Positions 10,827 through 46,595 are shown, numbered from the stretch's first letter. The stretch is DNA of 64,000 bases from an uncultured Dysgonomonadaceae bacterium (GCA_964631255.1 CAZVWS010000004.1:35806-99805), one strand, 5' to 3'. Numbers and translations: made by a program. Notes: generated by a model from the sequence alone, not told the origin.

Positions 10827-10848
10827 AAGTGAAACGAAAATATATTTT

Positions 10849-12072: not shown

Positions 12073-12124
12073 ATTGTTGCAATTGATGCGGGATATTTTT
12101 ACTCTTTGGATTGCTCGTGCCTTT

Positions 12125-29969: not shown

Positions 29970-32687
29970 ATGGACAAAAAAAGAGTTTACACCTTTGGTA
30001 ACGGTGTTGCTGAAGGACGTGCAGATATGAAAAATCTGCTGGGGGGTAAAGGTGCTAACCTTGCCGAAATGAACCTGATTGGTGTTCCCGTACCTCCGGG
30101 ATTTACCATTACCACCGAAGTTTGTACCGAGTATAATAAATTGGGAAAAGACTACGTGGTAGAAGTGTTAAAATCAGAAGTGGAAGAAGCAATCGCAAAC
30201 ATCGAGCAACTGATGGGCGCGAAATTTGGCGACCGCGAAAACCCATGCTTGGTATCTGTACGCTCAGGAGCTCGCGTTTCTATGCCCGGTATGATGGACA
30301 CCGTTCTCAACCTTGGTTTGAATGACGATGCAGTAGAAGGTATCGCCAAAAAATCGGGTAACGAGCGTTTCGCTTGGGACTCTTACCGCCGTTTCGTACA
30401 AATGTACGGCGATGTGGTTCTCGGAATGAAACCCGAAAGCAAAGACGACATCGACCCATTTGAAGAGATAATGGAAGAAATGAAGGAAGCCAAAGGAGTA
30501 GAATTAGATACAGAACTATCGGTAGAAGATTTGAAAGAATTGGTAAAACGTTTTAAAGCAGCCGTGAAAAAACAAACCGGAAGCGACTTCCCCGAAAGTG
30601 CGTGGGAACAACTTTGGGGTGCCATTTGTGCCGTATTTGATAGCTGGATGAACGAACGCGCTATCCTTTACCGGAAAATGAACAACTTCTCCGATGAGTG
30701 GGGAACTGCCGTAAACGTACAAGCCATGGTCTACGGAAACATGGGAAAAACTTCGGGAACAGGCGTTGCTTTCACACGCGACTCAGCAACCGGAGAAGAT
30801 ATTTTTAACGGCGAATACCTGATAGATGCACAAGGTGAAGACGTTGTTGCCGGTGTACGAACACCACAAGAAATCACGATAGAAGGCTCGCGTCGTTGGG
30901 CAAAATTGCAAGGCGTTTCGGAAGAAGAACGTGCTGCAAAATACCCATCGTTGGAAGAAGCGCTACCCGTTTGTGCCGCAGAACTCATCGAGACACAACA
31001 AAAACTCGAAGACTACTTCAAAGATATGCAAGACTTGGAATTTACCATCCAAGACGGAAAATTGTGGATTCTGCAAACCCGTAGCGGAAAACGTACCGGT
31101 GCAGCCATGATAAAAATTGCTATCGATATGCTTCACCAAGGATATATCGACGAAAAAACAGTGCTGAAACGTTGCGATGCCGAGAAATTGGACGAACTGT
31201 TGCACCCTGTTTTCGACAAAAAAGCATTGGCAGAAGCAAAACCGATTACCAACGGACTTCCCGCATCGCCGGGTGCTGCCGCCGGACAAATTGTTTTCCA
31301 TGCCGACGACGCCGAAGAATGGGCAAAAGACGGAAAGAAAACAATTCTTTGCCGCATCGAAACATCGCCCGAAGACCTCCGCGGAATGGCTACGGCTCAA
31401 GGTATCCTCACTGCACGTGGTGGTATGACATCGCACGCTGCTGTTGTGGCACGCGGTATGGGTAAATGCTGTGTTTCGGCTGCAAATGGCGTTGTTATCA
31501 GTTATAAAGACAGAACAATGACCATAAACGGCAAGGTGTTGAAAGAAGGCGACTGGATTTCGCTGAACGGAACAACCGGAAACGTTTACGAAGGAAAAAT
31601 ACAAACGCAGGATGCGGAATTGGGTGACGATTTCCTCGAACTGATGAAAATTGCCGACAAATATACCCGCATGAACGTGCGCACCAATGCCGATACGCCT
31701 CGCGATGCCAAAGTGGCTCGCAATTTCGGTGCAACCGGTATCGGACTTTGTCGTACCGAGCACATGTTCTTCGAAGAAGACAAAATCATTCCCATGCGTG
31801 AAATGATTTTGGCGAAAAACGAAGAAGGTCGTCGCAAAGCGTTAGAAAAACTGCTTCCATTGCAAAAAGAAGACTTCAAAGGAATATTCACGGCAATGGA
31901 CGGATTCCCCGTTACCGTTCGCTTGCTCGACCCACCATTGCACGAATTTGTACCACACGATGAAAAAGGACAAATGGAAATGGCAAGAGTAATGGATATC
32001 TCCTACGAAGATATTCACGAACGTGTTGAAGGATTGATGGAATCGAACCCGATGCTCGGATTGCGCGGATGCCGTCTCGGAAACCTCTATCCCGAGATTA
32101 CCGAAATGCAAACACGCGCCATCATGGAAGCTGCCCTCGACCTGAAAAAAGAAGGCATCAAAGCCGTTCCCGAAATCATGGTTCCCCTTACCGGTATCTT
32201 GCACGAGTTTAAAGCACAGAAAGATATCATCGAAAAAACCATCAAAGAGGTATTTGCAGAATACAACGATTCTATCGACTACCACGTGGGCACGATGATT
32301 GAAATTCCACGCGCTACACTCACTGCACACCGCATTGCAACCGAAGCCGATTTCTTCTCGTTCGGAACCAACGACTTGACGCAGATGACATTTGGTTACA
32401 GCCGCGACGACGTTGCCAAATTCCTACCGATGTATATCGACAAAGGAATTTTGAAACACGACCCGTTTGCCGTGCTCGACCAAAACGGTGTTGGTCAGCT
32501 CGTGAGCATGGCCGTTCAAAAAGGTCGCGAAGTGAAACCCTCGCTCAAATGCGGTATTTGCGGCGAACACGGAGGCGAACCCTCATCCGTGAAATTCTGC
32601 CACCGCGTAGGCCTCAACTATGTTTCTTGCTCTCCTTTCCGTGTGCCCATCGCACGTTTGGCGGCAGCGCAAGCGGCTATTGAATAA
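29970..32687 (+). CDS. ppdK: Pyruvate, phosphate dikinase
   Basis: 905 aa. Phosphohistidine motif GGMTSHAAVVARG and the PEP-utilising C-terminal domain segment GICGEHGG. Confidence 0.95.
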   Translation: MDKKRVYTFGNGVAEGRADMKNLLGGKGANLAEMNLIGVPVPPGFTITTEVCTEYNKLGKDYVVEVLKSEVEEAIANIEQLMGAKFGDRENPCLVSVRSGARVSMPGMMDTVLNLGLNDDAVEGIAKKSGNERFAWDSYRRFVQMYGDVVLGMKPESKDDIDPFEEIMEEMKEAKGVELDTELSVEDLKELVKRFKAAVKKQTGSDFPESAWEQLWGAICAVFDSWMNERAILYRKMNNFSDEWGTAVNVQAMVYGNMGKTSGTGVAFTRDSATGEDIFNGEYLIDAQGEDVVAGVRTPQEITIEGSRRWAKLQGVSEEERAAKYPSLEEALPVCAAELIETQQKLEDYFKDMQDLEFTIQDGKLWILQTRSGKRTGAAMIKIAIDMLHQGYIDEKTVLKRCDAEKLDELLHPVFDKKALAEAKPITNGLPASPGAAAGQIVFHADDAEEWAKDGKKTILCRIETSPEDLRGMATAQGILTARGGMTSHAAVVARGMGKCCVSAANGVVISYKDRTMTINGKVLKEGDWISLNGTTGNVYEGKIQTQDAELGDDFLELMKIADKYTRMNVRTNADTPRDAKVARNFGATGIGLCRTEHMFFEEDKIIPMREMILAKNEEGRRKALEKLLPLQKEDFKGIFTAMDGFPVTVRLLDPPLHEFVPHDEKGQMEMARVMDISYEDIHERVEGLMESNPMLGLRGCRLGNLYPEITEMQTRAIMEAALDLKKEGIKAVPEIMVPLTGILHEFKAQKDIIEKTIKEVFAEYNDSIDYHVGTMIEIPRATLTAHRIATEADFFSFGTNDLTQMTFGYSRDDVAKFLPMYIDKGILKHDPFAVLDQNGVGQLVSMAVQKGREVKPSLKCGICGEHGGEPSSVKFCHRVGLNYVSCSPFRVPIARLAAAQAAIE

Positions 32688-32720
32688 CAAATCAGATTTT
32701 CATCCTTATTTTTACATATC

Positions 32721-32754
32721 ACGGAGCAGCTTATGGGTTGCTCCGTGTTTTTTG
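32721..32754 (+). terminator. Rho-independent terminator after ppdK
   Basis: Stem ACGGAGCA (32721-32728) pairs with TGCTCCGT (32739-32746), followed by a T-run. Confidence 0.7.
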
Positions 32755-32765
32755 TTATATCTTTA

Positions 32766-32796
32766 CCGTAGGAAAATAAAACAAACATTATCTAAA
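32766..32796 (+). promoter_or_regulatory. Bipartite motif CCGTAGGAAAA-N12-TATCTAAA (candidate ECF-type promoter), copy 1
   Basis: Ends 23 nt upstream of the sigma-factor start. An identical bipartite motif with identical spacing recurs at 33353-33383. Confidence 0.5.
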
Positions 32797-32818
32797 CAGA
32801 AAATTCAAATCATCCGCT

Positions 32819-33358
32819 TTGTCCGACACCAAACTCATATACAACATTCTTTCAGGCAACAAAGATGCTTTTAAGGAATTGATGGAGAAATACCAAGCCA
32901 AGGTATTTAGTACAGCGATGGGTTTTGTTCACTCCAAAGAGGATGCCGAAGATATAACGCAAGAGGTTTTTATCAAGGTATATCAATCTTTATCTACATT
33001 TAAAGGTGAGGCAGCATTTTCTACCTGGCTCTACAGAATAACGGTGAATCACAGCCTGCTTTTCATTAACAGAAACAAAAAAAACAGACTACTGGTTTCG
33101 CTCGAAAATATATTCAACAAGCCCAACAACGAAAATACTCCGTTAGAGAGTCTCGAAATAAAAGAGCGCGACGAACGAATAAAAAAAGCCATCGATTCTC
33201 TCTCCGATTCGCAGCGAGCAGCATTCGTACTAAGCAAATACGAAGAGTTGAATCAGAAAGAGATTGCGGCTATTTTAAACAAATCAGAAGGGGCGGTAGA
33301 GCAACTTTTACAACGGGCAAAAACCAATTTGCAAAAAAAATTGCAACCCTCACCGTAG
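32819..33358 (+). CDS. ECF-type RNA polymerase sigma-70 factor
   Basis: Region 2 (EDAEDITQEVFIKVYQSL...WLYRITVNH) and region 4 (SQRAAFVLSKYEELNQKEIAAILNKSEGAVEQLLQRAK). TTG start. Confidence 0.85.
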   Translation: MSDTKLIYNILSGNKDAFKELMEKYQAKVFSTAMGFVHSKEDAEDITQEVFIKVYQSLSTFKGEAAFSTWLYRITVNHSLLFINRNKKNRLLVSLENIFNKPNNENTPLESLEIKERDERIKKAIDSLSDSQRAAFVLSKYEELNQKEIAAILNKSEGAVEQLLQRAKTNLQKKLQPSP

Positions 33359-33383
33359 GAAAAAACAACAACAAGTATCTAAA
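33353..33383 (+). promoter_or_regulatory. Bipartite motif CCGTAGGAAAA-N12-TATCTAAA, copy 2
   Basis: Overlaps the sigma-gene stop codon and ends 18 nt upstream of the next gene. Confidence 0.5.
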
Positions 33384-33400
33384 TAATAAACGAAAACAAA

Positions 33401-33694
33401 ATGAAACCGGAAGATTATATCGACGATTTTATCCAACGCGAAAGGCAAACAAAGCCAAATCCGTTTTTGAGTACAAAGGTGCTAACAAAAGTGGACGAAT
33501 TGGAGAAAAGCAGTATCAAAAAGATGCCGTTGTGGCAAACGGTTTCCGTGGCAGCAAGTATTGCCATTGCAGCTTATTTTGGCATTTCTGTCGGCAACAG
33601 CTACATCGATAACCAAATGCCCGAAGTGGTGATGAACATAAACGACAGCCAGATAGAAAATTTAAGTTACTACAATTTTGACGATTATGAATAA
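33401..33694 (+). CDS. Small single-pass membrane protein (anti-sigma-like by position)
   Basis: 97 aa with one TM segment (LWQTVSVAASIAIAAYFGISV), immediately downstream of the ECF sigma gene. Confidence 0.5.
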   Translation: MKPEDYIDDFIQRERQTKPNPFLSTKVLTKVDELEKSSIKKMPLWQTVSVAASIAIAAYFGISVGNSYIDNQMPEVVMNINDSQIENLSYYNFDDYE

Positions 33695-34241
33695 TTCAAA
33701 TAAAATACTTTGGCTAATCATTGTCTTGTTGGTCATTTTGAACATAACAACCTTGGGTACCATATTTTACCACAACAAGCAAAACAGAAACGATAAATTG
33801 GCCATTGTTCTGGACGAAAACAGACAAAATCCGCTCACGGGACGCTTTTTTAGGCAAAATCTCGGTTTCGACGACTCGCAAATGGCAGCTTTTAGAGAAA
33901 CAAATCGCGAATTTCAACACGTAGCCAATAATCTGATTTTCGAAATGGATTCTTTGAAGACGGAAATGTTCGCAGAATTGAATTCCGCGCAGCCCGATAC
34001 CGCCAAACTCAATAATTTATCGGCACATCTGGGCAGCCACCATGTGGAATTAAAGAATATTACCAACCACTACTATCTGAAAATAAAATCGGTATGCAAA
34101 CCTTCGCAACAAGAACGATTGCAAGAAGCCTTCGCACCTCTTTTTAGAGATGGAACTTCCACCAACTTAGGAAAAGGGCTCAACCGAAAAAACGGCAACG
34201 GATACCGATACCGAAACGGACGCGGCTGGAGAAACCAATAA
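33678..34241 (+). CDS. Spy/CpxP-like periplasmic protein (periplasmic heavy metal sensor family)
   Basis: N-terminal anchor, helical repeats such as LGFDDSQMAAFRETNREF, and an Arg/Gly/Asn-rich tail. Confidence 0.55.
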   Translation: MTIMNNSNKILWLIIVLLVILNITTLGTIFYHNKQNRNDKLAIVLDENRQNPLTGRFFRQNLGFDDSQMAAFRETNREFQHVANNLIFEMDSLKTEMFAELNSAQPDTAKLNNLSAHLGSHHVELKNITNHYYLKIKSVCKPSQQERLQEAFAPLFRDGTSTNLGKGLNRKNGNGYRYRNGRGWRNQ

Positions 34242-34275
34242 ACCGGAATACATAAACATTTAAATATTTATCAAG

Positions 34276-34734
34276 ATGAAAACAAAATTATTTATCACAG
34301 TATGGAGCCTGATATTGTCAGTAGGACTACTATCTGCTCAAACCCAAAACAATACCCAAAAGCAAAACGAGAAAACCACTTCCGAACAAAAAGGACCGGC
34401 TTTTGTAGATAAAAACAACAACCTCATTTGCGACAATTTCGAGAATGGCACTCCCGGCAATAAAAATGCCAACGGCAAACAACGTCTGTTGGATGGCTCA
34501 GGAAGAAATCTTGGAAAAGGCAAAGGGATGAGAAACGGCAGAGGTAATGGAAGAGGTTGCGGAAGAAATTTTGTAGATAACAACAACGACGGCGTGTGCG
34601 ATAATCTGAAAAACAGAACTCCCCGCCGACAAAACGGCACGGTAGATGTAACCGGACTTCGCAATGGAAGAGGCTACGGCAGAAATTTTGTGGATAAAAA
34701 CAACGATGGCATCTGCGACCGCCGCCAAAAATAG
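34276..34734 (+). CDS. Secreted protein with three FVDxNN(D/N)x(I/V)CD motifs separated by Arg/Gly/Asn-rich linkers
   Basis: Signal peptide ending LLSAQ. Internal repeats FVDKNNNLICDNFENGTP, FVDNNNDGVCDNLKNRTP and FVDKNNDGICDRRQK. Confidence 0.6.
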   Translation: MKTKLFITVWSLILSVGLLSAQTQNNTQKQNEKTTSEQKGPAFVDKNNNLICDNFENGTPGNKNANGKQRLLDGSGRNLGKGKGMRNGRGNGRGCGRNFVDNNNDGVCDNLKNRTPRRQNGTVDVTGLRNGRGYGRNFVDKNNDGICDRRQK

Positions 34735-34820
34735 GCATACCATTCGTTAATCACAGAAAAAAATTTATCATTGGATACAGTCCACTGAGCTTATACAACA
34801 TTAATAACACCCCCAAAGGC

Positions 34821-35066
34821 ATGCTTATCAACAAAAACATAGCAGTAAGTGAAAATGGATTCATGTTTAATCCACTCACAGGAGATAGTTTCAGCGTGAA
34901 CCAAACCGGTTCGTTTATCATTCAAAAAATGAAAGAAGGCAAATGCGAAAAAGATATTTTACAAGCTCTTTGCCAAGAATACGAATTGGACAGTTACACT
35001 GCCGAAAAAGATTTCTATGATTTCATCTCGTTGTTAAATAGTTATCAGCTCATTGAAAATGAATAG
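34821..35066 (+). CDS. PqqD-family small protein (peptide-chaperone/RRE-like)
   Basis: 81 aa. FMFNPLTGDSFSVNQTGSFIIQ...YDFISLLNSYQLI resembles PqqD-like proteins. Confidence 0.65.
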   Translation: MLINKNIAVSENGFMFNPLTGDSFSVNQTGSFIIQKMKEGKCEKDILQALCQEYELDSYTAEKDFYDFISLLNSYQLIENE

Positions 35067-36108
35067 AAAGAAAATAACTGTTGGTGTTACGGGGCTCAAT
35101 AACATAGACAGCCCCGGACCCGGCATGCCCGTTATTCGCGCATTAAAAGAAAGTACCGATTTCGATTTTAGCATTGTTGGTCTTTCGTACGAAACTTTGG
35201 AACCCGGAATCTATATGCACGAACTGCTGGATAAGGTATATCAACTACCTTTACCGTCGGCTGGTTCATCAGTTTTGAAAGAGAGATTGCAATACATCCA
35301 TCAAAAAGAGAAATTGAATGTAATTATTCCAAATTTTGATGCAGAATTGCATAATTTTATCAAAATACAACACGCTCTAAAATCGGAAATGGAAATTGCC
35401 ACATTCTTGCCGTCGCACGAATCTTTTGAAGAAAGGCAAAAATCGGAACTGAACAAATTTGGCGAAAAATACAACGTGAAAGTACCCAAAAGTTACATGA
35501 TTAACCAAATATTGGAGTTCAAAGAGATAGAAAAAGATATTCATTACCCGATGGTAATAAAAGGCAGATATTACGACGCCTATATTGCTTACACTTACGA
35601 ACAAGCCGTGTCGTACTTCTACAAAATAACCTCCAAATGGGGATATCCGGTTATCGTGCAACAGTTTGTAACAGGCACAGAAGTAAATGTAACTGCAATT
35701 GGTGACGGCAAGGGCAGTTGCGTTGGCGCCGTAGCGATGCGAAAACTATACATAACCGATAAGGGCAAGGCGTGGTCGGGCATTGCACTGGAAGACAATA
35801 AATTGATGCAAATTTCGAGTCGGGTAATTGAAAACAGCAAATGGCGTGGCGGATGTGAGTTAGAATTTATCAAAACCAATGATAAAGAATATTATTTGTT
35901 AGAAATGAATCCGCGATTTCCGGCTTGGATATATCTGGCTAACGGTTGCGGACAAAATCATCCCGAAGCACTTGTAAAAATGGCTTTGGGTGAAAAAGTA
36001 CAGCCATTTGCCCAATACAAAAGCGGAAAAATGTTTTTACGCTACTCTACCGATATGATTGTAGATATTTCGGAATTTGAAAAAATTTCAACAACAGGCG
36101 AGTTATAA
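35053..36108 (+). CDS. ATP-grasp domain protein
   Basis: Central YPMVIKGRYYDAYIAY...PVIVQQFVTGTEVNV and CELEFIK...YLLEMNPRFPAW resemble ATP-grasp ligases. Overlaps the PqqD-like gene by 14 nt. Confidence 0.8.
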   Translation: MKMNRKKITVGVTGLNNIDSPGPGMPVIRALKESTDFDFSIVGLSYETLEPGIYMHELLDKVYQLPLPSAGSSVLKERLQYIHQKEKLNVIIPNFDAELHNFIKIQHALKSEMEIATFLPSHESFEERQKSELNKFGEKYNVKVPKSYMINQILEFKEIEKDIHYPMVIKGRYYDAYIAYTYEQAVSYFYKITSKWGYPVIVQQFVTGTEVNVTAIGDGKGSCVGAVAMRKLYITDKGKAWSGIALEDNKLMQISSRVIENSKWRGGCELEFIKTNDKEYYLLEMNPRFPAWIYLANGCGQNHPEALVKMALGEKVQPFAQYKSGKMFLRYSTDMIVDISEFEKISTTGEL

Positions 36109-36205
36109 CTCTTCACTCAATCATAAAAAGAAAATTTTCAAAATTAACATCTTCAATCAGATAGTAAAGAATCAGGAACAACAAAAAGTGATAAAAAACG
36201 AACTT

Positions 36206-37561
36206 ATGAAACTAACATACGAACGACCGATAATTCAAAAATTAAATACAGGCTTACTTAATAAATTTGGTTACAGAACCGAATACACACCACTAAAACA
36301 GATTGATGGTGTATCTGTTAACGAATTGATGGATAGCTACGGTTCCCCGCTATTTGTGATAAGCGAAAAAACAATACGCGACACCTATCAACGTGCACAA
36401 AAAGCATTTAAAATGCGCTACCCGAAAGTGCAGTTTGCCTGGAGTTACAAGACCAATTATCTGGATGCCGTGTGTCATATTTTTCATCAGGAAGGTAGTT
36501 GGGCTGAAGTTGTATCGGGTTTTGAGTACCAGAAAGCAATTCGCAACGGCGTTCCGGGTAATCTCATCATCTTTAATGGTCCCGACAAATCAGCAGAAGA
36601 TTTGCTGACCGCCACCACCAATGGTTCTTTGATTCATATTGACCATTTCGACGAACTTTATACCCTCATCCAAATTTTGGAAGGCACCCAACTCAAAGCA
36701 AGGGTTGCCATTCGGGTAAATATGGATACTGGCGTCTATCCGCAATGGCATCGATTTGGTTTCAATTACGAATCGGGCGAAGCTTGGAGTGCCATCATGA
36801 AAATTGTTACCCAAAAAAACTTAGAGTTAGAGGGTTTGCATTGCCACATTGGCACGTACATGCTAACAGCAAACGCGTACGCAGTAGCTGCACAAAAAAT
36901 GTGCGAACTGGCACATAAAACGGCTACCAAAGCCGGCATTAAAGTAAAATATATGGATTTGGGAGGCGGATTTTGCTCCACCAATACACTAAAAGGCTCT
37001 TACTTGCCGGGTGCAGATATGACTCCGTCGTTCGATGATTATGCCGAAGCCATTACAAATACCATTTTGCATTTCGGATTCAAGCCCGACGAGTTGCCGC
37101 TGCTCATTCTCGAAACCGGTCGTGCGCTCATAGATGAAGCGGGTTATCTGCTCGGCTCCGTGCTGGCAACCAAACGTATGCCCGACGGACGACGTGCCAC
37201 CCTTCTCGATATTGGATTAAATATCATGTTCACATCCTTCTGGTACAACCACCGTGTGTCGGTTGCCCAAGATTTTTCCCAACATTCCGAAGAGATGGTG
37301 CTGTATGGCCCGCTTTGTATGAATATCGACTGTCTTCGTGAAAGTATTTATCTGCCACTGCTCAAAAAAGGAGATAAAGTGGTGGTGCACGAAGTTGGAG
37401 CATACAACATGACCCAATGGATGCAATTTATCACACTGCGCCCCAATATTGTACTGATAGACACAAAGGGTAAAGTGCATCTGATTAGAAAAGAGGAAAC
37501 CACAGAATCTATTGTATCTCATGAATTGACGCCCAAGTATCTGGCTACCTTTACTTTGTAA
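36206..37561 (+). CDS. PLP-dependent decarboxylase, Orn/DAP/Arg decarboxylase family 2 (LysA-like)
   Basis: GSPLFVISEKTIRD, the PLP-lysine region WSYKTNY, MDLGGGF and EVGAYN. Start re-set to MKLTYERP (ATG 36206). Confidence 0.85.
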   Translation: MKLTYERPIIQKLNTGLLNKFGYRTEYTPLKQIDGVSVNELMDSYGSPLFVISEKTIRDTYQRAQKAFKMRYPKVQFAWSYKTNYLDAVCHIFHQEGSWAEVVSGFEYQKAIRNGVPGNLIIFNGPDKSAEDLLTATTNGSLIHIDHFDELYTLIQILEGTQLKARVAIRVNMDTGVYPQWHRFGFNYESGEAWSAIMKIVTQKNLELEGLHCHIGTYMLTANAYAVAAQKMCELAHKTATKAGIKVKYMDLGGGFCSTNTLKGSYLPGADMTPSFDDYAEAITNTILHFGFKPDELPLLILETGRALIDEAGYLLGSVLATKRMPDGRRATLLDIGLNIMFTSFWYNHRVSVAQDFSQHSEEMVLYGPLCMNIDCLRESIYLPLLKKGDKVVVHEVGAYNMTQWMQFITLRPNIVLIDTKGKVHLIRKEETTESIVSHELTPKYLATFTL

Positions 37562-37582
37562 TTATTTTTAAAGTTACACCGA

Positions 37583-39754
37583 ATGAAAACTCGGATACAA
37601 TCAACCGCAAAGCTACACCTGCATGGTTTGATAAACAGCTACGCGCAAATATTTTTCTCTCAAGACAAATGGTATGCCATTGTTTTGCTGATCCTTAGCA
37701 TGTTAGACCAGAGGGTAGGATTAGGTGGATTGGTGGCTGTGCTTATAACCAACTTAGTGGCGCATCTTTTCGGTTTTTCAAAAGATAAGATTCTGGCAGG
37801 ACTATATGGTTTTAATGCCATTTTTATCGGATTGAGTTTGACATACAAATTTCACGTTAATTCCTCTTTCTTGATTCTTTTCTTTTTCTCAGTCGTATTA
37901 GGATTTATGTTTACAATCTGGTTCGAAACACTTTTCAGCAAATACAAAATTCCAATCCTAACCTTGCCGTTTGTTTTTACCCTTTTCATTATCGATTTAT
38001 CGTTCACCAATTTTACCAACATACAACCCATTCTTCCTTTTGATAGAGTTACCATTGTATTGGCTGAACAAATGAAAGCTCCTTGGTATTACTTGGTACA
38101 TCTTCTGGATAGTGTTTCATTGCCACAAATGCTTCTCTATTATCTGAAAACGATGGCATCAATCTTTTTTGCCGATAGTGTTTTGGTTGGTATAATTATG
38201 GTGATTGCCCTGTTTTTTCATTCGCGAATAAAATCAACGGTTGCTTTCTTGGGATTTCTTTTCGCATTTATTACAGGTAAAATGATGGGCGTAGATGTTC
38301 AGCAACTAACTCAAAATCTGGTAGGTGTGAACTATATTTTTTGGGGAATGGCGATGGGTAGTTTCTTTATTATCCCCAACGCGTACAGCTATTTGCTGGT
38401 CATTGGGCTTACCCCAGTACTATTTTTCTTTCAAACAGGCATTGATAATTTAATTTCATTTGCCGGATTGGCATCATATACCCTGTCATTCAGTTTGATA
38501 ACGATTTTAGTTCTGTTTATTTTGAAACAAAGAAGTAAAAACAGATTTTTTATTTTCCCATTTATTCAATATTATAATCCCGAAAAAACAGTTTACAAAA
38601 ATATGAATTATATGCAGCGTTTCGGGCAGGAAGTATTGTTTAAGTTTCAACTACCTTTTCTAGATAAATGGACTGTCAGTCAAGGTTATAACGGAGCTAT
38701 TACCCATTTAGGTGCTTGGGCAAAAGCTATGGACTTTCAGATTACAGATGAGCATGGCAATACCTGTTGCAAACCAAGCAAACAAAAAGAAGATTATTAC
38801 AGTTTCAACAAGCCGGTTCTGGCACCTGCAGACGGCTATGTGTATATGATTAGCAATATCACCGAAGACAACGAGATTGGAAGTGTAAATACTATCCAAA
38901 ATTGGGGTAATACCATTATTATCAATCATCTGAATGGACTTTTTTCACAATTAAGTCATTTAAAAAAAGATAGTTTCAGAGTTCAGATTGGCGATTTTGT
39001 TACAAAAGGTAGCGTGGTTGCTGCTTGTGGTAATTCGGGAAGATCGCCCGAACCACATTTGCATTTTCAGATTCAACTCTCGCCCGAGATTGGCGCGACA
39101 ACTTACTCGTATCCTATAGGATATTTTTTTGAAAAAACAGAAGAAGCACCCATCCTTCGAATAGGAGATACACCCAAGGAGAACAGTACTATTTATAACG
39201 TAATCTCTTCGGAACTGGCACACCATGCTTTTGATACAATGCCGGGCAGAGTGCTTCGTGTAAAAAGTAACAACGATGATTTTTTGTGGGTCATTGCTAC
39301 CGATGCTTACAATAAGAAATACATCTATTGTAACAAATCAAAATCTGTGGCTTATATCGAAAACAATGGTACCATGTTCTATTTTACCGATTTTGAAGGG
39401 AAAAAATCCTCCCCACTTTATTTCTTGTATCGAAGTTGCTTCAAAATATTGCTATCCAACGAAATAGGTATTGTTATTAAAGACGCTATCCCACTGACTA
39501 AAGAGCATCCCATTGGCACAAAATGGTTGCAAGATTTGGTCGCACCGTTTTTTATTTTTACACAAGTAAAATATCAATCGAAACTTATCGAATCCAATCA
39601 TGCACATTATCCAACAGAACTTGTGTATCAGACAGAAACACATGTTTCTCCACTCAATTTAAAAAGGGGAAGAAAATTTGCCACAGTAACAATTGCAAGC
39701 AATAGAATTGAAATAAACTCAAAAAACAGGAAATTATGTATAGATTGGGGCTGA
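37583..39754 (+). CDS. Fusion protein: urea-transporter-like multi-pass membrane domain + C-terminal M23 (LytM) metallopeptidase domain
   Basis: N-terminal LINSYAQIFFSQD plus about 10 TM helices is UT-family-like. The C-terminal part has HLGAWAKAMDF, NWGNTIIINH, CGNSGRSPEPHLHFQ (the M23 HxxxD / HxH motifs). Confidence 0.8.
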   Translation: MKTRIQSTAKLHLHGLINSYAQIFFSQDKWYAIVLLILSMLDQRVGLGGLVAVLITNLVAHLFGFSKDKILAGLYGFNAIFIGLSLTYKFHVNSSFLILFFFSVVLGFMFTIWFETLFSKYKIPILTLPFVFTLFIIDLSFTNFTNIQPILPFDRVTIVLAEQMKAPWYYLVHLLDSVSLPQMLLYYLKTMASIFFADSVLVGIIMVIALFFHSRIKSTVAFLGFLFAFITGKMMGVDVQQLTQNLVGVNYIFWGMAMGSFFIIPNAYSYLLVIGLTPVLFFFQTGIDNLISFAGLASYTLSFSLITILVLFILKQRSKNRFFIFPFIQYYNPEKTVYKNMNYMQRFGQEVLFKFQLPFLDKWTVSQGYNGAITHLGAWAKAMDFQITDEHGNTCCKPSKQKEDYYSFNKPVLAPADGYVYMISNITEDNEIGSVNTIQNWGNTIIINHLNGLFSQLSHLKKDSFRVQIGDFVTKGSVVAACGNSGRSPEPHLHFQIQLSPEIGATTYSYPIGYFFEKTEEAPILRIGDTPKENSTIYNVISSELAHHAFDTMPGRVLRVKSNNDDFLWVIATDAYNKKYIYCNKSKSVAYIENNGTMFYFTDFEGKKSSPLYFLYRSCFKILLSNEIGIVIKDAIPLTKEHPIGTKWLQDLVAPFFIFTQVKYQSKLIESNHAHYPTELVYQTETHVSPLNLKRGRKFATVTIASNRIEINSKNRKLCIDWG

Positions 39755-40968
39755 TTACAATATTTATTTTAACCGTCTGGATTCTGAATGCACAAACTAA
39801 TGTGAGTGCCATACAAACAGACAGTATCAAGCAAGCAACTATGCGCAATAAAAAAGGGACAGACACCACGTTTCAGCAAATTTATTGGCAAAAAGCAAAA
39901 AATAGTTTTTCAAAAAAAAATTATGCATTGGCAGCAAAATATTTCTCTGAAGAACTCAAAAGTAACCCATTGGATTCCAATTTACAACAAGAATTATACC
40001 ATTCATATTTACTAAGCGGACAAAAGGTAAAAGCCGAAGTTTTATTTAAATCGGTTTTGCCGTCGTATCACAAAAAATCAGTTATAGAGTATATCGCTCT
40101 CTCATCTGGGTATCTTGTCAACAACAACAAACCCAAAATAATGCTTCATTTTCCACAATACGACTCAGTCAACCAATACCAAAATATGTTTTACACGAGT
40201 CTTACATTGGGTTTGAATATAACAAAAAGAACTAAATTGACACTTGGGTATCAGATGTACAATACACATTTTGAGCAATATGGCACAATGGGTCTTCTTC
40301 AGAATTTTAATCTATCTCAGCACCAGTGGATAGCATCGTTGCAATATTTTGCAAAAAACAATATTTCGACCGGTTTTTCGGCAGCTTTTTATCAGATTGA
40401 TACTTTTAATAAACAACAATTCTATTCAAATAATTCATCGGGCAACCCCCCAAAAAAAAGTTCTTCTTCGGCATTTTCTGTACTTGCATTTATAAACAAA
40501 CGTTTTGTCCATCTTCAACCCGAAATTTCCATTGCCTATTCCAATTTTGGTACAGATAAACAGTATCAGGCAGAAGGTTCGCTCACGTATTATCCTCTTG
40601 GCAATCTAAATTTATACGGTCAAACAAAACTTGCCGCCATACACAATGTTCATTTTTTGCAAACAAATCAATTCGTCTTTTCGCAAAGCGTAGGGGTTCG
40701 ATTAATCAAACAATTGTGGTTGGACGGACGTATGGGTATCGGAAACCAACAAAACTACATCACGGAACACTCTTTTTTGGTTTACGACACCTACAATCCC
40801 ATCATAGCTATTACCGGCGCTTCGCTCTCCTATTATTTCAAGAAGGCTACTATATCTGCAGGATATCAATGGCACAAAAGAGAAGGATATGCTTACTCTA
40901 TGATAGATTACACCAAATACAGTTATAACAATCACTTAATAAACATAGCATTGGTATGGAACTTTTAA
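39736..40968 (+). CDS. Outer-membrane beta-barrel protein with N-terminal TPR-like segment
   Basis: Signal peptide ending ILNAQ, alternating beta-strand pattern, C-terminal ALVWNF. Overlaps the upstream gene by 19 nt. Confidence 0.55.
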   Translation: MYRLGLITIFILTVWILNAQTNVSAIQTDSIKQATMRNKKGTDTTFQQIYWQKAKNSFSKKNYALAAKYFSEELKSNPLDSNLQQELYHSYLLSGQKVKAEVLFKSVLPSYHKKSVIEYIALSSGYLVNNNKPKIMLHFPQYDSVNQYQNMFYTSLTLGLNITKRTKLTLGYQMYNTHFEQYGTMGLLQNFNLSQHQWIASLQYFAKNNISTGFSAAFYQIDTFNKQQFYSNNSSGNPPKKSSSSAFSVLAFINKRFVHLQPEISIAYSNFGTDKQYQAEGSLTYYPLGNLNLYGQTKLAAIHNVHFLQTNQFVFSQSVGVRLIKQLWLDGRMGIGNQQNYITEHSFLVYDTYNPIIAITGASLSYYFKKATISAGYQWHKREGYAYSMIDYTKYSYNNHLINIALVWNF

Positions 40969-41570
40969 CTAAAAAATACGGCTTGATATTGGTTTTATTC
41001 TTGTTTGTTCTCTCTGCTACGGCGCAAACAGAAATCTCTAATCACTTCTCCAACAGCTATAAATACGAATCTACGGGCGATTATAGAAAAGCTATTCAAG
41101 AAATGAATTTCCTGAAAGGTTACGATTACCACAAAGCTTTGCGATTGGGCTGGCTGTATTATTTGTCAAAAGATTTTGAGAGTAGCAAGAAGTATTACAA
41201 TCAGGCTATCAGTCTATCTCCCAAATCAGTAGAAGCACTTTTGGGGATTTGTTATCCTTTGGAAGTACAAAATAAAACCGAAGAATTAGAAATTGTATAT
41301 AAAAAAATACTCCTTTTGGATAAAAACAACTCCAAGATAAACTACGCGTTAGGAAATATATATTATTACAAGAAAAATTTTAAACTAGCAGAAAAATACT
41401 ACGATATTGTGATACAATTGTATCCGTCCGATTATTATTCAACACTTATGGGGGCGTGGACTAAATATTTTTTGGGTAAAAAAGCCGAAGCGCTCAAACT
41501 ATTTAACCATGTACTCATTATTTCGCCAACCGACCAATCGGCAAAATATGGACTCAATCTTCTGAAATAA
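40956..41570 (+). CDS. Secreted TPR-repeat protein
   Basis: Signal peptide ending SATAQ. TPR-like repeats (YNQAISLSPKSVEALLGI, ALGNIYYYKKNFKLAEKYYDIVIQLYP). Overlaps the upstream gene by 13 nt. Confidence 0.7.
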   Translation: MELLTKKYGLILVLFLFVLSATAQTEISNHFSNSYKYESTGDYRKAIQEMNFLKGYDYHKALRLGWLYYLSKDFESSKKYYNQAISLSPKSVEALLGICYPLEVQNKTEELEIVYKKILLLDKNNSKINYALGNIYYYKKNFKLAEKYYDIVIQLYPSDYYSTLMGAWTKYFLGKKAEALKLFNHVLIISPTDQSAKYGLNLLK

Positions 41571-41572
41571 TA

Positions 41573-41908
41573 CTACTTGCTCACCAAATTGAGCCCCACG
41601 ATAGAAATTACCAAGGTAATCAGGAAAAAGATGCGCCAAAAAGCAGTAGATTCACCCAAGAAGACAATGCCGGCAAGTACTGTAAATACAGCCCCAATAC
41701 CACCCCAAACGGCGTATCCGGTGCCAATGGCAATAGCATTTTCGCCACTAATGGCTTTGTACAACAAAAACATGCTGATAGAAACACTTGCCACAAAAGA
41801 GAGAAACCAGAGCCAAGCGGTTTTTCCCGAACTTTCGGACATACGCTCTAAACTAAAAGCAAATACGGCTTCGAACAAGCCCCCGACAATAAGATAAATC
41901 CAATTCAT
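41573..41908 (-). CDS. SMR-family (SugE/QacE-like) small multidrug/quaternary ammonium efflux protein
   Basis: Four TM helices and a conserved membrane Glu in GGLFEAVFA. Start re-set to MNWIYLIVGG (ATG 41908). Confidence 0.85.
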   Translation of the reverse strand: MNWIYLIVGGLFEAVFAFSLERMSESSGKTAWLWFLSFVASVSISMFLLYKAISGENAIAIGTGYAVWGGIGAVFTVLAGIVFLGESTAFWRIFFLITLVISIVGLNLVSK

Positions 41909-42070
41909 AATAATAGCACCATGAGAACGTGTTTTGCGACACGAGATTACAGAAATTTCTTGCAAAAATAGCATAGTTTTCACAAAAAAGGAAAACTGTG
42001 TGGCAAGTTAACAAAAAAATGAGCAAGAAATAGAAATTCAGGACTGAAAATTACTAACTCAATTTTGCAT

Positions 42071-42376
42071 TTATTCGATAACAAGTATCTGTAATTCAAT
42101 TTTTTTAATTGGTTTTTTATCTTTCTCCCATGGTCTTTTTTCGACTAAAACAACCGTTGTTTCGCCCGCAGAAAGCGCTTCAATAGTTACCAAAACGAGA
42201 ATACTTGCACCAATAATTACATCATCGATGCTCTTTTTTTTCTGCCGGTTTTCGAGTGTTACACGCACCATTGTTTCGTCATACGACTCCGCGCTCCACA
42301 AATATCCGGTTGTTGGGTTCGATTGTATCTCGAACGTATATTTTTCATTTTTTTTTAAAGAAATTGATTTTGCCAT
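42071..42376 (-). CDS. Chagasin-family (I42) cysteine peptidase inhibitor, no signal peptide
   Basis: 101 aa with the hallmark NPTTGYLW loop. Confidence 0.8.
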   Translation of the reverse strand: MAKSISLKKNEKYTFEIQSNPTTGYLWSAESYDETMVRVTLENRQKKKSIDDVIIGASILVLVTIEALSAGETTVVLVEKRPWEKDKKPIKKIELQILVIE

Positions 42377-42454
42377 TTAATTGAAGTATTTACATTGTAC
42401 ATTTCCAATCAAAGATACAAAAAAAGCCGATATGAATAATACCGGCATTTTTCA

Positions 42455-43258
42455 CTAATAATCACTCACTTTGCGTATTGTCCAAAAATCGGAACAATAG
42501 TTTCTGTCGCTGATATACTGGTAAGGCATCCAAAAATATCCTTTATCTCCCCAGTTTTTACCCCATGAGTTTCTGACCAGTACCATCTGTTTTTCGTCGT
42601 CGTATCCTACTGCTAAAACAGCATGTCCGCCCAACATCGATTCGGTTTTAATATCGGGCATTGGCATGATTCCGGTTGTAGTAACCTCTTGCGAGTAAAA
42701 ACTCTCGTAAACCGAAAAACCAAAAGCAATTGGAAATCCCTCGGCTAAGCATTGTTTTATACCCATCAATCCGTTTGAAATACGAAAATAGCTGCCAATT
42801 ACGTGATTAAGAGCCGATGTGTAGCACATAACCGGTGGTTTTTTGGTGAATTTTGCAAATGGTTTGGTGCTGGCACTATATCGCCATTCCGATTCGTAAC
42901 AAACACCTTGCTTGCTCAATGACTTGATTCCGTCGCGAAGATATGCGCCACTATCGTAGCTTTCACTACCCATCATCACTCTTTCGTTGTAGTACAAAAA
43001 TAACCTCGACATCCGTCTATTGCGTTTTTTTTGAACTTTTCGTCCATATTCCACGGCTGCATTCAGCGCATTTGCTGTGCAACTTCCCAAATTGCCCTGA
43101 CTAAAAACAGGTGGGCAATTTTTCCTTAAATCTATTTTTGCCGGAAGTGATTTGGCTATTCTCAATGGTGCTACATAAGAATAATCTCTTGCATCGGGTA
43201 TATCGGGGATCCACCCCAATTTTGGCATTTTAATCTTTTTTGGACTATTTGCTTGCAT
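42455..43258 (-). CDS. Papain-like (C1 family) cysteine peptidase, no signal peptide
   Basis: Catalytic motifs QGNLGSCTANA (Cys), GGHAVLAVGYDD (His) and VRNSWGKNWGDKGYFWMPY (Asn/Trp). Confidence 0.85.
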   Translation of the reverse strand: MQANSPKKIKMPKLGWIPDIPDARDYSYVAPLRIAKSLPAKIDLRKNCPPVFSQGNLGSCTANALNAAVEYGRKVQKKRNRRMSRLFLYYNERVMMGSESYDSGAYLRDGIKSLSKQGVCYESEWRYSASTKPFAKFTKKPPVMCYTSALNHVIGSYFRISNGLMGIKQCLAEGFPIAFGFSVYESFYSQEVTTTGIMPMPDIKTESMLGGHAVLAVGYDDEKQMVLVRNSWGKNWGDKGYFWMPYQYISDRNYCSDFWTIRKVSDY

Positions 43259-43355
43259 TGTTGTCTTATTTACATTGATTTTTAGTTTTTAGATAACGAT
43301 ACGTTGCAAAAATATAATTTTATATACGTAGATGTTAGGATTTTTTGCGCATTTT

Positions 43356-43373
43356 ATAGGACAAATTGCGCAT
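43356..43373. repeat. Left arm of 18-bp inverted repeat (ATAGGACAAATTGCGCAT)
   Basis: Its reverse complement occurs at 44191-44208 with one mismatch (17/18). Both arms are flanked by TTTTGCG-containing sequence. Confidence 0.7.
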
Positions 43374-44190
43374 TAACAGTTGCACGAAAAGGATAATAAA
43401 TAACTTTATAACCAGTTATTCATCTATTTGTAAGACAATTATATAATAAAATTATTTATTTGCCAGTAATATTGTATTTTTGATTGAAGATTTTTTCCGA
43501 GATTTTCTTACAATATACTAACTCCTTTCCATCTATGAATCTTTTTCCTTTGGATGAAAAAAACCGATACTAAAATTGAGCTAATGCATATGTATAGTAT
43601 GGAAAAATATTTTCGGAAGTATTAAACTTTATTCGTTAATTACACATGCTATGTAACCGAAAATTAAATTGCAAAAAAAGGAATAGCCTTTATAGAGATA
43701 AGTACTAACAGATAAATTAATAGATAAAAAAAAGACCAAGGTTTTGCTTGATCTTTTCCTAAAACTTAAATCACGCAATTACGCAACAGTTTTTCTATAA
43801 CTGTTCGCTGTGCACTCAGAACACCTAAATCTAAGTTTTAATGTACAAATATAGCTTAAAACTCTGTTTAGTCAAAATAAATTCTAATATTTAACATTAT
43901 ATTAACTTTTTACTCACATTCAAATATTGATAGTTCAGTATCACATTATCATGATTCTAATAATTGTTGAAAAGACAGCCGGTTTATTTAAAAAAACACC
44001 AATAAAAAAAATATTATTACGATAAACACGAGTAATGTCCCCCCTACTGAAAGAATATTTTCTTGAAATTTCGTATAATTTTTAGTAAATACAAAATATT
44101 TGCTTTTTAAACATGGTTAATTTTTGTTATTTCTACTCGTCGGCACCAGGATTTTTTAGTCATTATATGTCAATATATTAGGCTATTTTG

Positions 44191-44208
44191 ATGCGTAATT
44201 TGTCCTAT
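44191..44208. repeat. Right arm of 18-bp inverted repeat (ATGCGTAATTTGTCCTAT)
   Basis: Pairs with 43356-43373. The arms enclose 817 bp of ORF-free AT-rich DNA. Confidence 0.7.
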
Positions 44209-44281
44209 TTTTATGAATGTTAACGCAAAATAATTCTGATATTTTTATTCTCTTTTGGAATAATTAATTAAATAAACATAT

Positions 44282-44289
44282 TATATTTG
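44282..44289 (+). promoter_or_regulatory. Candidate -7 promoter element (TATATTTG) upstream of the paralog operon
   Basis: TAnnTTTG match about 190 nt upstream of ATG 44479, outside the inverted-repeat-bounded segment. The region is AT-rich, so a chance match is possible. Confidence 0.3.
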
Positions 44290-44478
44290 CCATTATAATT
44301 TATCACGGTTCAATAAATGTGATATATGATAAGCAACCCATCTTTACTAGCGCGTACAAAATTGGAAGTAGAAAAATAAAACAACAAAAAAAGAAAGCAA
44401 CGTAAAATATCATTTCATATCAGAATTCTGATATTGGAATAAATAAATATTCATTTTCACCATTAAAAAACAAATATT

Positions 44479-45528
44479 ATGAACTATTTAAACAGCAATG
44501 CTTCAAATATCGCTACAAGCGCGTTGAAAGCAATCCCATTTGGAGATATTATAGGCGGCCCGTTAGAAGCCTGTATTTTGGCTCAAGAGAAGGCTGCAGT
44601 TACCACGGTCAACTTCATAGAGCGTGTAGGTATGCAAAGAAAACCCGTATTTGATGCCACGGGTAATCCGGTTAAAATAAAAAATGAAAACGGTGTTGAG
44701 GAGCAAGTTTTTGAATGGGAAGCTATTTATATATCTTTCCAGTTTATACAAGGCGGACGAATGGTACGACTCAATGTTCCTATGCTCACGGTGGTGCCGG
44801 TACCTTATATAGCAATAAACACGATTGATATCAACTTCAAAGCGAACATTTCAGCTTCGGCTGCCACTTTTGATGAGGAAACAGAAAGTGATTCGAGTAA
44901 TCAAAAAGATTCTCAATTTGCTAGTGCCAGCGAATATGCGAGGCAGAACACCCGTAAAGGAGTAGGATTTTTAGGATTTTATAGAAAAAACAATACTTCT
45001 AGCAGTAGTTCAAGAAACTATTCGCAAAGTAGCATGAGTGCCTCCATATCCAGCAAAAAAGATTCCAAAGGAACAGCCGAATCCAAATATAGTGTAGAAT
45101 ACACCATGGACGTGGCAGTGCACGCATCGCAAGACAGTATGCCGGCCGGTATGGCAAAAATATTAGAACTGATTGGAACGGCAATGGACTTGTGCGATCC
45201 CGATGGCGAATTTGTAGTAAACTCTACACAATTTCGAGTTACAGGAAACGAAAAAGTACAGCTGGAAGCATCTTACAAAACACCTGCCGGTCTGCTAATG
45301 GCAGAAGGTTTTAAATTATACAAATACAATGACTTAAAAGAATTTAATAAAAATGAATTCAATGATAAAGGTTTACCCAAAAATGGTACAGAATTACAGG
45401 ATGGTCGCAAATTAAAAGATAAAAAAACTTATGAATTGGGTGAGGGTTATTATATTCTGCAATCAGACGATAAAACACAGTTTTTGCAATTGGCTGTAGA
45501 AAAAGAAGCTACATCCCAAACCACCTAA
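44479..45528 (+). CDS. Split-core family paralog 1 (DUF2589-like by recollection) with beta-rich C-terminal domain
   Basis: Core blocks IPFGDIIGGPLEACILAQEKAAVTTVNFIERVG, RLNVPMLTVVPVPYIAINTIDINFKANISAS and SKKDSKGTAESKYSVEYTMDVAVHASQDSMPAGMAKILELI. No signal peptide. Confidence 0.8.
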   Translation: MNYLNSNASNIATSALKAIPFGDIIGGPLEACILAQEKAAVTTVNFIERVGMQRKPVFDATGNPVKIKNENGVEEQVFEWEAIYISFQFIQGGRMVRLNVPMLTVVPVPYIAINTIDINFKANISASAATFDEETESDSSNQKDSQFASASEYARQNTRKGVGFLGFYRKNNTSSSSSRNYSQSSMSASISSKKDSKGTAESKYSVEYTMDVAVHASQDSMPAGMAKILELIGTAMDLCDPDGEFVVNSTQFRVTGNEKVQLEASYKTPAGLLMAEGFKLYKYNDLKEFNKNEFNDKGLPKNGTELQDGRKLKDKKTYELGEGYYILQSDDKTQFLQLAVEKEATSQTT

Positions 45529-45656
45529 ATAAATGTACATTGAATTTCAAGTTTTATAGAGTGCATTTCTCTCAATAACCTCCTGATATAGAGCATGAAT
45601 ATAAAGAAACAACAAAATAAGTTGTACAAATAAAGAATATAAAAAAATAAATAATT

Positions 45657-46541: not shown

Positions 46542-46595
46542 TTTCTGTCAGAACTATATTACCAAGATGTTTTACCTCCAAAAAAATGATGAATC

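Follow-up and report, generated by a model that had tools for sequence, protein, structure and literature searches.

FigC/FslC, the N-citrylornithine decarboxylase of rhizoferrin biosynthesis in Francisella, falls together with SbnH, AcsE, MccE and BtrK into one clade with the diaminopimelate decarboxylases (DAPDCs), and the members of this clade that are not DAPDCs have been argued to serve specialized metabolism (PMC7857480). Rhizoferrin can be made by two alternative routes, one in which ligation is followed by decarboxylation and one in which the diamine is formed first (PMC7857480). Proteins combining a urea transporter (UT) domain with an M23 metallopeptidase domain were listed in bacteria in 2026, without a function (PMC12998343). 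Here we describe a gene cluster in which a relative of FigC and such a UT::M23 fusion are encoded next to each other. It occupies positions 34821-41570 of a 64,000-nucleotide stretch of DNA (the window) from an uncultured Dysgonomonadaceae bacterium (GCA_964631255.1 CAZVWS010000004.1:35806-99805). As the preliminary description of this DNA had claimed, six co-directional open reading frames (ORFs) are present there on the + strand. They encode a PqqD-family protein, an ATP-grasp ligase, a fold-III pyridoxal 5'-phosphate (PLP) decarboxylase, the UT::M23 fusion, a putative outer-membrane β-barrel protein and a tetratricopeptide repeat (TPR) protein. We tentatively propose that together these genes make up a single accessory cassette of Bacteroidota for biosynthesis and export.

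The conservation of the gene order is the firmest part of this proposal. With the ligase as query, a scan of one genome per species (185,579 species) detected relatives in at least 578 species, and 80 loci were kept for comparison. By tblastn, the order PqqD protein, ligase, decarboxylase, UT::M23, barrel protein and TPR protein is kept in nearly all of those among the 80 loci that are sufficiently long, and the arrangement is therefore far beyond chance. When all ORFs from 81 loci were clustered, the conserved set consisted of exactly the six cassette families (81, 77, 73, 64, 57 and 56 loci), the shortfalls below 81 falling at contig ends; the remaining recurrent clusters were antisense shadow ORFs and lineage-specific regulators. 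The PqqD gene is present in 77 of the 81 loci, with the missing cases at contig ends, and the barrel protein and the TPR protein are found in 57 (at the same position) and 56 loci, respectively. The cassette enzymes are 60-84% identical across orders. Synteny in about 80 loci thus establishes the six genes as one co-conserved unit, and the objection anticipated in the preliminary description, that they might not occur together elsewhere, falls away. Since it is found in a small share of the scanned species, the cassette looks accessory. Full-text literature searches returned no published description of this gene set, in agreement with the earlier remark that no characterized pathway has this composition.

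The flanking regulators differ by lineage, and only the six genes are constant. A LytTR response regulator with a His_kinase is found in 25 loci and an AraC-type regulator in 17, and an extracytoplasmic function (ECF) sigma/anti-sigma pair with two small proteins flanks the cassette in Bacteroidales only. In many lineages, two-component regulators are found beside the cassette or fused into its operon, as would be expected of an accessory function under regulation.

A second type of cassette was found via the genomic contexts of UT::M23 homologues and of the ligase belonging to it; it is called type B here, and the six-gene arrangement type A. In all five places examined, the genes for UT::M23, the TPR protein and the barrel protein adjoin a divergently transcribed unit of three genes, which encode a VOC-like protein (142-149 aa, with weak glyoxalase/VOC similarity), an OKR_DC_1 decarboxylase (~910 aa), that is, a fold-I Orn/Lys/Arg decarboxylase, and an ATP-grasp protein of the PRK06524 family (~490 aa; NF005096, 717 bits against a cutoff of 684). 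These places are positions 4783-14115 of locus L081 (a Wenyingzhuangia isolate), 3043-12118 of L085, 145-10467 of L086, 1270-10467 of L087, and one place without DNA. Type B loci have neither PqqD nor the fold-III decarboxylase, and none of the type B genes occurs in the type A flanks. Between loci, the three proteins of the unit share 74-82% identity; the family of the type B ligase counts 5240 proteins at E <= 1e-10, and the non-identical matches among those listed are 69-80% identical. Only the ATP-grasp core aligns between the type A and type B ligases (hhalign probability 16%), and a specific relationship between the two was rejected on this ground, as was a hidden RiPP recognition element (RRE; RiPP, a peptide made by the ribosome and modified after translation) in the type B ligase (hhalign probability 0.1%). 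Profile searches of the PDB with the type B ligase gave weak biotin-carboxylase matches only. The TPR proteins of the two types are 41% identical, and in a neighbor-joining tree without support values the UT::M23 proteins of type B make up one clade nested inside type A.

The envelope module is therefore constant between the two types, and the pair of ligase and decarboxylase is replaced by non-homologous enzymes. This module swap is strong evidence that the ligase and decarboxylase activities jointly define the chemistry, and an amide between a carboxylate and a diamine that stems from a dibasic amino acid is the simplest chemistry consistent with both types. A membrane acyltransferase of the Acyl_transf_3/HGSNAT type is encoded beside or near the type B ligase in four of the five type B places (10454-11488 in L086, 10468-11517 in L087 and 662-1684 in L081), and was not found in the type A loci. 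An exported amine is a possible substrate of this enzyme.

The type A decarboxylase (451 aa; 36206-37561, + strand) matches the Pfam families Orn_Arg_deC_N and Orn_DAP_Arg_deC (E 3.8e-32 and 3e-12), both PF02784 and PF00278 lying above their cutoffs. By alignment to FigC and to the DAPDC of M. jannaschii (MjDAPDC), with residue roles taken from the literature (PMC7857480), the fold-III signature is complete: the PLP lysine (K82), the stacking histidine (H214), the glycine loop (G253-255), the residues at the cofactor (E303 and R306) and the catalytic cysteine (C371) are invariant in 72 of 72 homologues. Its best solved relative is FigC/FslC (7kh2, 202 bits), ahead of MjDAPDC (162 bits, the best of the DAPDCs) and BtrK (93 bits). 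An arginine of the specificity helix and an acidic residue after the catalytic cysteine bind the distal centre of diaminopimelate (DAP) in DAPDCs (PMC7857480). The position of this arginine (R343 in MjDAPDC) is occupied by threonine in 67 and by asparagine in 5 of the 72 homologues, and the 'CES' motif of DAPDCs reads 'CMN' in all 72, with methionine as in FigC. The citrate ligands of FigC (H357 and R387) are likewise replaced, by I374 and Q404, in 72 of 72 homologues. The pocket thus has neither the arginine and glutamate of DAPDC nor the aspartate of ornithine decarboxylase (ODC), and its residues W346, Y347, M372, N373, I374 and Q404 are invariant and neutral throughout the family. Judged from the alignments, the pocket is conserved and neutral, unlike those of the enzymes acting on DAP, ornithine or citryl conjugates.

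These features bear on the simplest explanation of the locus, namely that the decarboxylase is the housekeeping LysA and its neighbors are unrelated to it. TIGR01048 (lysA) is indeed its second-best NCBIfam match, but the score of 223.6 bits is below the cutoff of 297.9, FigC outscores every DAPDC, no homologue retains R343 or the CES motif, and the gene is always situated inside a cassette detected in a small fraction of the scanned species. Housekeeping LysA is thereby effectively excluded; of the marks by which the preliminary description would have recognized it, the canonical DAP-binding residues are absent. No second fold-III decarboxylase is encoded within the 64-kb window. The score against NF041039 (FslC) is 228 bits, with a cutoff of 500, and the citrate-binding residues are also absent, as described above. 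The comparison drawn earlier with enzymes that decarboxylate conjugated amino acids is apt, FigC being the best solved relative and BtrK also matching.

The decarboxylase carries an N-terminal extension of ~17-19 residues; FigC and MjDAPDC align only from residue 33-34 of the query. Residues 5-10 (YERPII; 36218-36235, + strand) form a conserved motif in this extension, with Y5, E6 and P8 invariant in 72 of 72 homologues and position 10 occupied by isoleucine (65), leucine (5) or valine (2). The consensus Y-E-R/S-P-x-I/L/V corresponds to YxxPx[I/L], and lasso leader peptides carry YxxPxL as their recognition motif (PMC10368454). By a rough estimate, a chance match of such a short N-terminal motif has a probability of ~1%, before allowing for post-hoc searching. 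The motif is a candidate docking peptide for an RRE, and the PqqD/RRE protein might dock the decarboxylase via YERPxI rather than a precursor; we regard this as a lead, not a finding.

The PqqD-family protein (81 aa; 34821-35066, + strand) scores 46.7 bits against PF05402 (E 4e-12; gathering cutoff 23.4). A profile of the family built from 21 homologues has its best match in the lasso leader-binding protein TbiB1 (5v1u, E 6.7e-12), and TfuB1 is also matched (E 3.5e-6). By these profile matches, the protein is a canonical RRE, a peptide-binding adaptor, closest to the lasso B1 proteins. Its best NCBIfam matches are lasso PqqD chaperones, below cutoff (lasso_PqqD, 37.5 against 70). The C-terminal tail is acidic and variable in both length and sequence, and among 77 homologues there is no conserved carrier attachment residue in it, nor any PP-binding or LysW feature. 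The variable C-terminus and PqqD being the sole domain speak against a role as a LysW- or BtrI-like carrier, and the carrier-tethered chemistry that had been suggested for the locus is not supported.

An RRE points to a peptide as the source of the carboxylate, and the preliminary description had accordingly called for a search for a short precursor ORF nearby. Two ORF searches were made: one for ORFs of 15-70 aa with an ATG start on the + strand within 700 nt upstream of PqqD, and one for ORFs of 12-90 aa with any start codon on both strands in all intergenic space of the 81 loci. The only recurrent small ORFs were PqqD itself and shadow ORFs of coding genes, and no conserved precursor ORF was found near the cassette on either strand, within ~10 kb, in the 81 loci. 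A classical RiPP system with an adjacent precursor does not fit this result. Graspetide clusters would show an adjacent precursor with conserved core motifs, and no conserved small ORF was found in the 81 loci; a survey of graspetides contains no decarboxylase, M23 or urea terms (PMC8939145). Likewise, the features of a lasso cluster are missing: lasso_PqqD scores below cutoff, the six proteins contain no B2 or C domain, and no small ORF is conserved.

There could still be a RiPP with lasso-like logic whose precursor is unlinked. In such a system, the RRE would bind the leader, the ATP-grasp enzyme would make an isopeptide or add an amino acid, the decarboxylase would edit that residue as MccE does in microcin C, and a cytoplasmic M23 domain would cleave off the leader, with export coupled to this step as in peptidase-containing transporters. 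MccE and BtrK are placed in one decarboxylase clade (PMC7857480). The PqqD profile is closest to TbiB1 and TfuB1, with lasso PqqD chaperones as the best NCBIfam matches, and the functional set of a lasso cluster comprises an RRE, an enzyme that forms amides with ATP, a peptidase and a protein for export, as here. LytTR two-component systems, which occur around peptide-signal loci in Firmicutes, flank many cassettes. However, no small ORF is conserved in the loci searched, type B has no RRE, the lasso_PqqD scores are far under the cutoff, the identity of 60-84% across orders is unusual for RiPP tailoring enzymes, and a UT pore would not pass a peptide. We therefore regard the unlinked-precursor explanation as doubtful.

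The ATP-grasp ligase (349 aa; 35059-36108, + strand) matches PF15632, PF02786 and PF02655, all of its Pfam and NCBIfam matches being below the family cutoffs. Database searches gave 6030 relatives at E <= 1e-5, the best 120 of which, from Bacteroidales, Chitinophagales, Sphingobacteriales and Flavobacteriia, show 67-100% identity. An AlphaFold model (pLDDT 84) has its best fold match in 2pn1, a protein of unknown function, followed by biotin carboxylases, carbamoyl phosphate synthetase (CPS), L-amino-acid ligases and PylC; RizA, BacD/YwfE and BL00235 are among the matches. As these are generic ATP-grasp matches only, a specific fold assignment of the type A ligase was rejected.

The UT::M23 fusion (37583-39754, + strand) has Pfam matches to UT and Peptidase_M23. 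Its UT-fold channel domain (residues 1-318; 37583-38536) matches PF03253 over residues 16-314 (E 7e-47, 160 bits against a cutoff of 25), and its M23 metallopeptidase domain (residues ~360-540; 38660-39202) matches PF01551 over residues 409-498 (E 5e-16, 59 bits against 28.7). It ends in a β-rich domain (residues ~541-723; 39203-39754) that is confidently modeled and has no Pfam match. The AlphaFold model of the fusion (pLDDT 84) contains all three parts; by Foldseek, the UT domain superposes on the urea channel DvUT with a target-normalized TM-score of 0.77-0.81, and M23 folds are also matched. The UT domain scores below the yut equivalog TIGR03441 (107.5 against 274.6). The first UT signature is kept as IPILTLPF and the second half reads SYTLSF, so that the signature is largely retained, the second copy being partly changed. 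H375, D384, H459, H492 and H494, which correspond to the zinc ligands and the catalytic histidines of M23 enzymes, are invariant in 32 homologues including those of type B, and the first M23 motif has the spacing H-x8-D, not HxxxD. In a search of 1.8 billion representatives with the M23 and C-terminal domains (506 matches at E <= 1e-30), the combination was almost confined to proteins ~700-750 aa long whose match begins near residue 330, meaning that it is fused to UT; shorter matches look like fragments. An apparent fusion of 1305 aa (P0454; positions 3358-7275 of L089) covers UT::M23 together with the usual position of the barrel gene. Because the UT::M23 and barrel genes overlap by 19 nt in the window, it is probably a frameshift or an assembly join and not a new architecture.

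Both termini of UT proteins are intracellular. In 32 homologues of the fusion, the segment after the last helix (KQRSKNR) and the N-terminus are positively charged family-wide, and the central loop is acidic. Because of this positive-inside pattern and the intracellular UT termini, the M23 domain and the C-terminal domain are predicted to be in the cytoplasm, and the label of periplasmic peptidase given to the protein earlier is contradicted by this prediction.

The predicted topology bears on a second explanation, already raised in the preliminary description, in which the cassette is an envelope module that modifies or recycles peptidoglycan peptides, acting on stem-peptide-like substrates (for example by converting or attaching a DAP, lysine or diamine residue) with the TPR and barrel proteins as partners. 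Typical M23 enzymes are endopeptidases that act on peptidoglycan, and in NCBIfam the names closest to this domain are Pgp3, MepM and DipM, but all the peptidoglycan-peptidase scores are far under their cutoffs. The decarboxylase derives from the DAPDC clade, and the upstream ECF sigma/anti-sigma pair of Bacteroidales would suit an envelope function. Against this, clustering of the ORFs in the 81 loci revealed no Mur-ligase, transpeptidase or muropeptide-permease genes conserved with the block, and the occurrence in at least 578 of 185,579 species looks accessory. Weakened by the predicted cytoplasmic M23 domain and the absence of the DAP-binding residues, a peptidoglycan role appears improbable.

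Retention of the UT fold and signature would also be consistent with uptake, in which a small urea- or amide-like nitrogen compound would pass inward via the barrel and then the UT channel, to be acted on in the cytoplasm by the peptidase, the ligase and the decarboxylase. The nearest large families of both ATP-grasp types, CPS and biotin carboxylase, are bicarbonate-activating enzymes, but this similarity is at the fold level only. ATP-grasp ligation is an anabolic reaction, and the clustered ORFs include no conserved neighboring gene for a urease, an amidase or an allophanate hydrolase; in the loci examined the UT gene is never beside urease genes. Uptake and assimilation is, in our judgment, very improbable.

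The last two genes encode the parts that would reach across the envelope. The barrel protein (410 aa; 39736-40968, + strand) of the window has no Pfam family. Its translation begins with a signal-peptide-like N-terminus, TPR repeats are present in 22 of 28 homologues, and the C-terminus ends in an ...LxWNF strand with a terminal phenylalanine in 29 of 51 homologues. Beyond the TPR part, neither a family nor a PDB entry was matched. With its signal-like N-terminus and a C-terminus resembling those of outer-membrane proteins, this protein is a candidate for the outer-membrane β-barrel that it was designated earlier, and the barrel itself remains putative. The last protein is a secreted TPR protein (204 aa; 40956-41570, + strand; TPR_2, E 2.5e-18). 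A trans-envelope route made of inner-membrane, periplasmic TPR and barrel parts, as suggested previously, remains plausible.

Our proposal for the cassette, in which we place limited confidence, is that an amide of the N-acyl-diamine type is synthesized in the cytoplasm, released or processed at the channel-peptidase, and exported through the TPR/barrel route. In type A, the ATP-grasp enzyme would use ATP, via an acyl-phosphate, to couple a carboxylate with the amine in the side chain of a dibasic amino acid of the ornithine, lysine or DAP kind. The FigC-like decarboxylase would then strip the α-carboxylate from the conjugate, leaving an N-acyl-diamine type amide; ligation is placed first because this order fits the FigC-like neutral pocket. 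The PqqD/RRE adaptor would hold a carboxylate-supplying peptide, or dock the decarboxylase through YERPxI. The M23 domain on the UT-fold channel would trim or release the product, or a peptide-borne precursor, and the inner membrane would be crossed there. The presence of M23 on a channel suggests that cleavage or release is coupled to passage of the inner membrane, an analogy with peptidase-containing transporters that concerns their logic and not their ancestry. From there, the product would be carried across the periplasm and the outer membrane by the TPR protein of the periplasm and the TPR-barrel protein. In type B the order would be reversed: the fold-I Orn/Lys/Arg decarboxylase would make the diamine, and the unrelated ATP-grasp enzyme would then ligate it.

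Several points weigh against this proposal. The main difficulty is the channel: the pore of canonical UT proteins is too narrow for much beyond urea-sized amides, the signature of the fusion is largely kept, and an N-acyl-diamine is charged. The presence of PqqD/RRE is normally a sign of a ribosomal precursor, and the vicinity yielded none. Type B has no PqqD, so the adaptor is inessential to any logic shared by the two types, and the tree relating the two types is a neighbor-joining tree without support values. Neither ATP-grasp enzyme can be assigned to a substrate from its sequence or fold, the β-barrel is deduced from sequence features, and the cytoplasmic location of M23 is a prediction.

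A bolder version may also be considered. UT::M23, the TPR protein and the TPR-barrel protein may constitute a previously unrecognized release-and-export route across the envelope of Bacteroidota, dedicated to a new class of diamine amides derived from amino acids or peptides. Its front end would have been swapped between two non-homologous pairs of ligase and decarboxylase, and the RRE of type A would have been repurposed to dock the decarboxylase through YERPxI in place of a precursor peptide. The product may possibly be a signal, because LytTR two-component systems are embedded in the operon in some lineages. We consider this full version unlikely.

The gene boundaries within the cassette were reexamined. 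Of the junctions given in the preliminary description, the 19-nt overlap of UT::M23 and the barrel gene (39736-39754), the 13-nt overlap of the barrel and TPR genes (40956-40968) and the 21-nt gap between the decarboxylase and UT::M23 (37562-37582) hold, and the 14-nt overlap between PqqD and the ligase does not: it arises only with the TTG start at 35053 of the mechanical ORF. Homologues and an identical database protein are 349 aa, which places the ligase start at the ATG at 35059 and reduces the overlap with PqqD to 8 nt (ATGAATAG). Similarly, because homologues of the decarboxylase are 451-452 aa, its start is placed at the ATG at 36206, 97 nt past the ligase stop; a start at 36077 (mechanical ORF 36077-37561) was rejected on the same lengths. 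The base composition of the window (~40% G+C) is that of an ordinary Bacteroidota chromosome. An Rfam search of window positions 32000-44500 gave no match at E <= 1, and riboswitch or RNA leads in seven loci came down to a single tRNA (Rfam). Counts of promoters and terminators equaled the shuffled expectation, the scanning model being one that does not cover Bacteroidota promoters.

In the window, genes for IleRS, LspA and PPDK are situated upstream of the cassette. Closer to it, a four-gene unit (32819-34734) encodes an ECF sigma factor, a putative anti-sigma factor (97 aa), a 187-aa protein with no Pfam match and a secreted 152-aa protein that is Gly/Arg/Asn-rich and contains three FVDxNNxxxCD repeats; this unit adjoins the cassette only in the Bacteroidales loci L001-L004. 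An SMR-family gene (41573-41983, - strand) faces the cassette convergently, 2 nt past the TPR stop, and is not kept beside the cassette in other loci. Farther downstream are a protease/inhibitor pair (42071-43258, - strand), in which the gene for a chagasin-family I42 inhibitor directly follows that for a papain-family C1 peptidase, and three consecutive DUF2589 paralogues of 349, 294 and 366 aa (44479-47696).

Some type A loci show variations. In L045, L049, L051, L053, L063 and L074, the TPR gene (200 aa), or a second copy of it, is situated ~4-5 kb upstream of PqqD, and L028, L029, L042 and L052 have two TPR copies in tandem. Two distant variants (positions 4306-13090 of L090 and 1-8274 of L092) have UT::M23 proteins of 31-32% identity, and in both the gene of a LytTR regulator follows the cassette immediately. 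The gene immediately upstream in L090 is that of a hybrid histidine kinase (CHASE3, HisKA, REC) and overlaps PqqD; L092 has a gene for a 494-aa protein without a domain call upstream, and YHYH, MbnP and MauG-like genes downstream.

The components of the cassette are members of known enzyme families, and pathways to siderophores, aminoglycosides and antimetabolites already combine a ligase with a decarboxylase; what is new is the constancy of the envelope module and the module swap. With type A in at least 578 species-level genomes, the cassette is widespread; its enzymes are strongly conserved, and it has had no assigned function. If our proposal is true, it would reveal a new class of metabolites in the phylum that dominates gut, wastewater and freshwater communities, a first function for the UT::M23 fusion of bacteria, a case of an M23 peptidase that works in the cytoplasm, and perhaps an RRE domain used outside RiPP biosynthesis. 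The swap between types A and B is a natural experiment for finding the product, since both types should give related compounds if the model is true.

The cassette can be compared with several known systems. It shares with the lasso machinery (B1 RRE, B2 protease, C cyclase and D exporter) an RRE, an amide-forming enzyme, a peptidase and an export protein, whereas the transglutaminase-type B2, the Asn-synthetase-type cyclase, the ABC exporter and a nearby precursor gene are absent; the YxxPx[I/L] motif is on the N-terminus of the decarboxylase in the cassette and on the leader peptide in lasso systems. Antimetabolite pathways of the tabtoxin/L-amino-acid-ligase kind (BacD, RizA) similarly use a LysA-family homologue and an ATP-grasp enzyme to make a small peptide-like metabolite, TabA being the LysA-like and TabS the ATP-grasp protein of tabtoxin; they have no specific sequence relationship to the cassette and lack the RRE, UT::M23 and the TPR/barrel module. 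The channel domain has the fold of the canonical urea channels (DvUT, UT-B, Yut) and keeps their first LPxxTxPF-type signature, but is fused to M23 and an extra domain.

On the envelope side, PgaA, BcsC, AlgK/AlgE and Slam have a TPR-plus-barrel architecture and export polysaccharides or proteins. The cassette resembles them in this architecture, a periplasmic TPR part joined to or paired with an outer-membrane barrel; it has no sequence match to them and encodes no glycosyltransferase or synthase. The butirosin proteins BtrI, BtrJ and BtrK likewise include an ATP-grasp enzyme, a fold-III decarboxylase whose substrate is a tethered amino acid, and a small partner, but BtrI is a phosphopantetheinylated carrier, whereas the small protein of the cassette is a PqqD/RRE protein without a PP-binding domain or attachment residue. 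A close parallel to the proposed chemistry is provided by FigC/FslC with FigA in Francisella rhizoferrin biosynthesis, and also by SbnH and AcsE. The cassette ligase is an ATP-grasp enzyme rather than an NRPS-independent siderophore (NIS) synthetase, and siderophore uptake genes are absent. In these systems, ligation comes first and the conjugate is then decarboxylated, as proposed here, and both FigC and the cassette decarboxylase have threonine in place of the DAPDC arginine and methionine after the catalytic cysteine. The pair of alternative routes to rhizoferrin is mirrored by the two cassette types, A and B.

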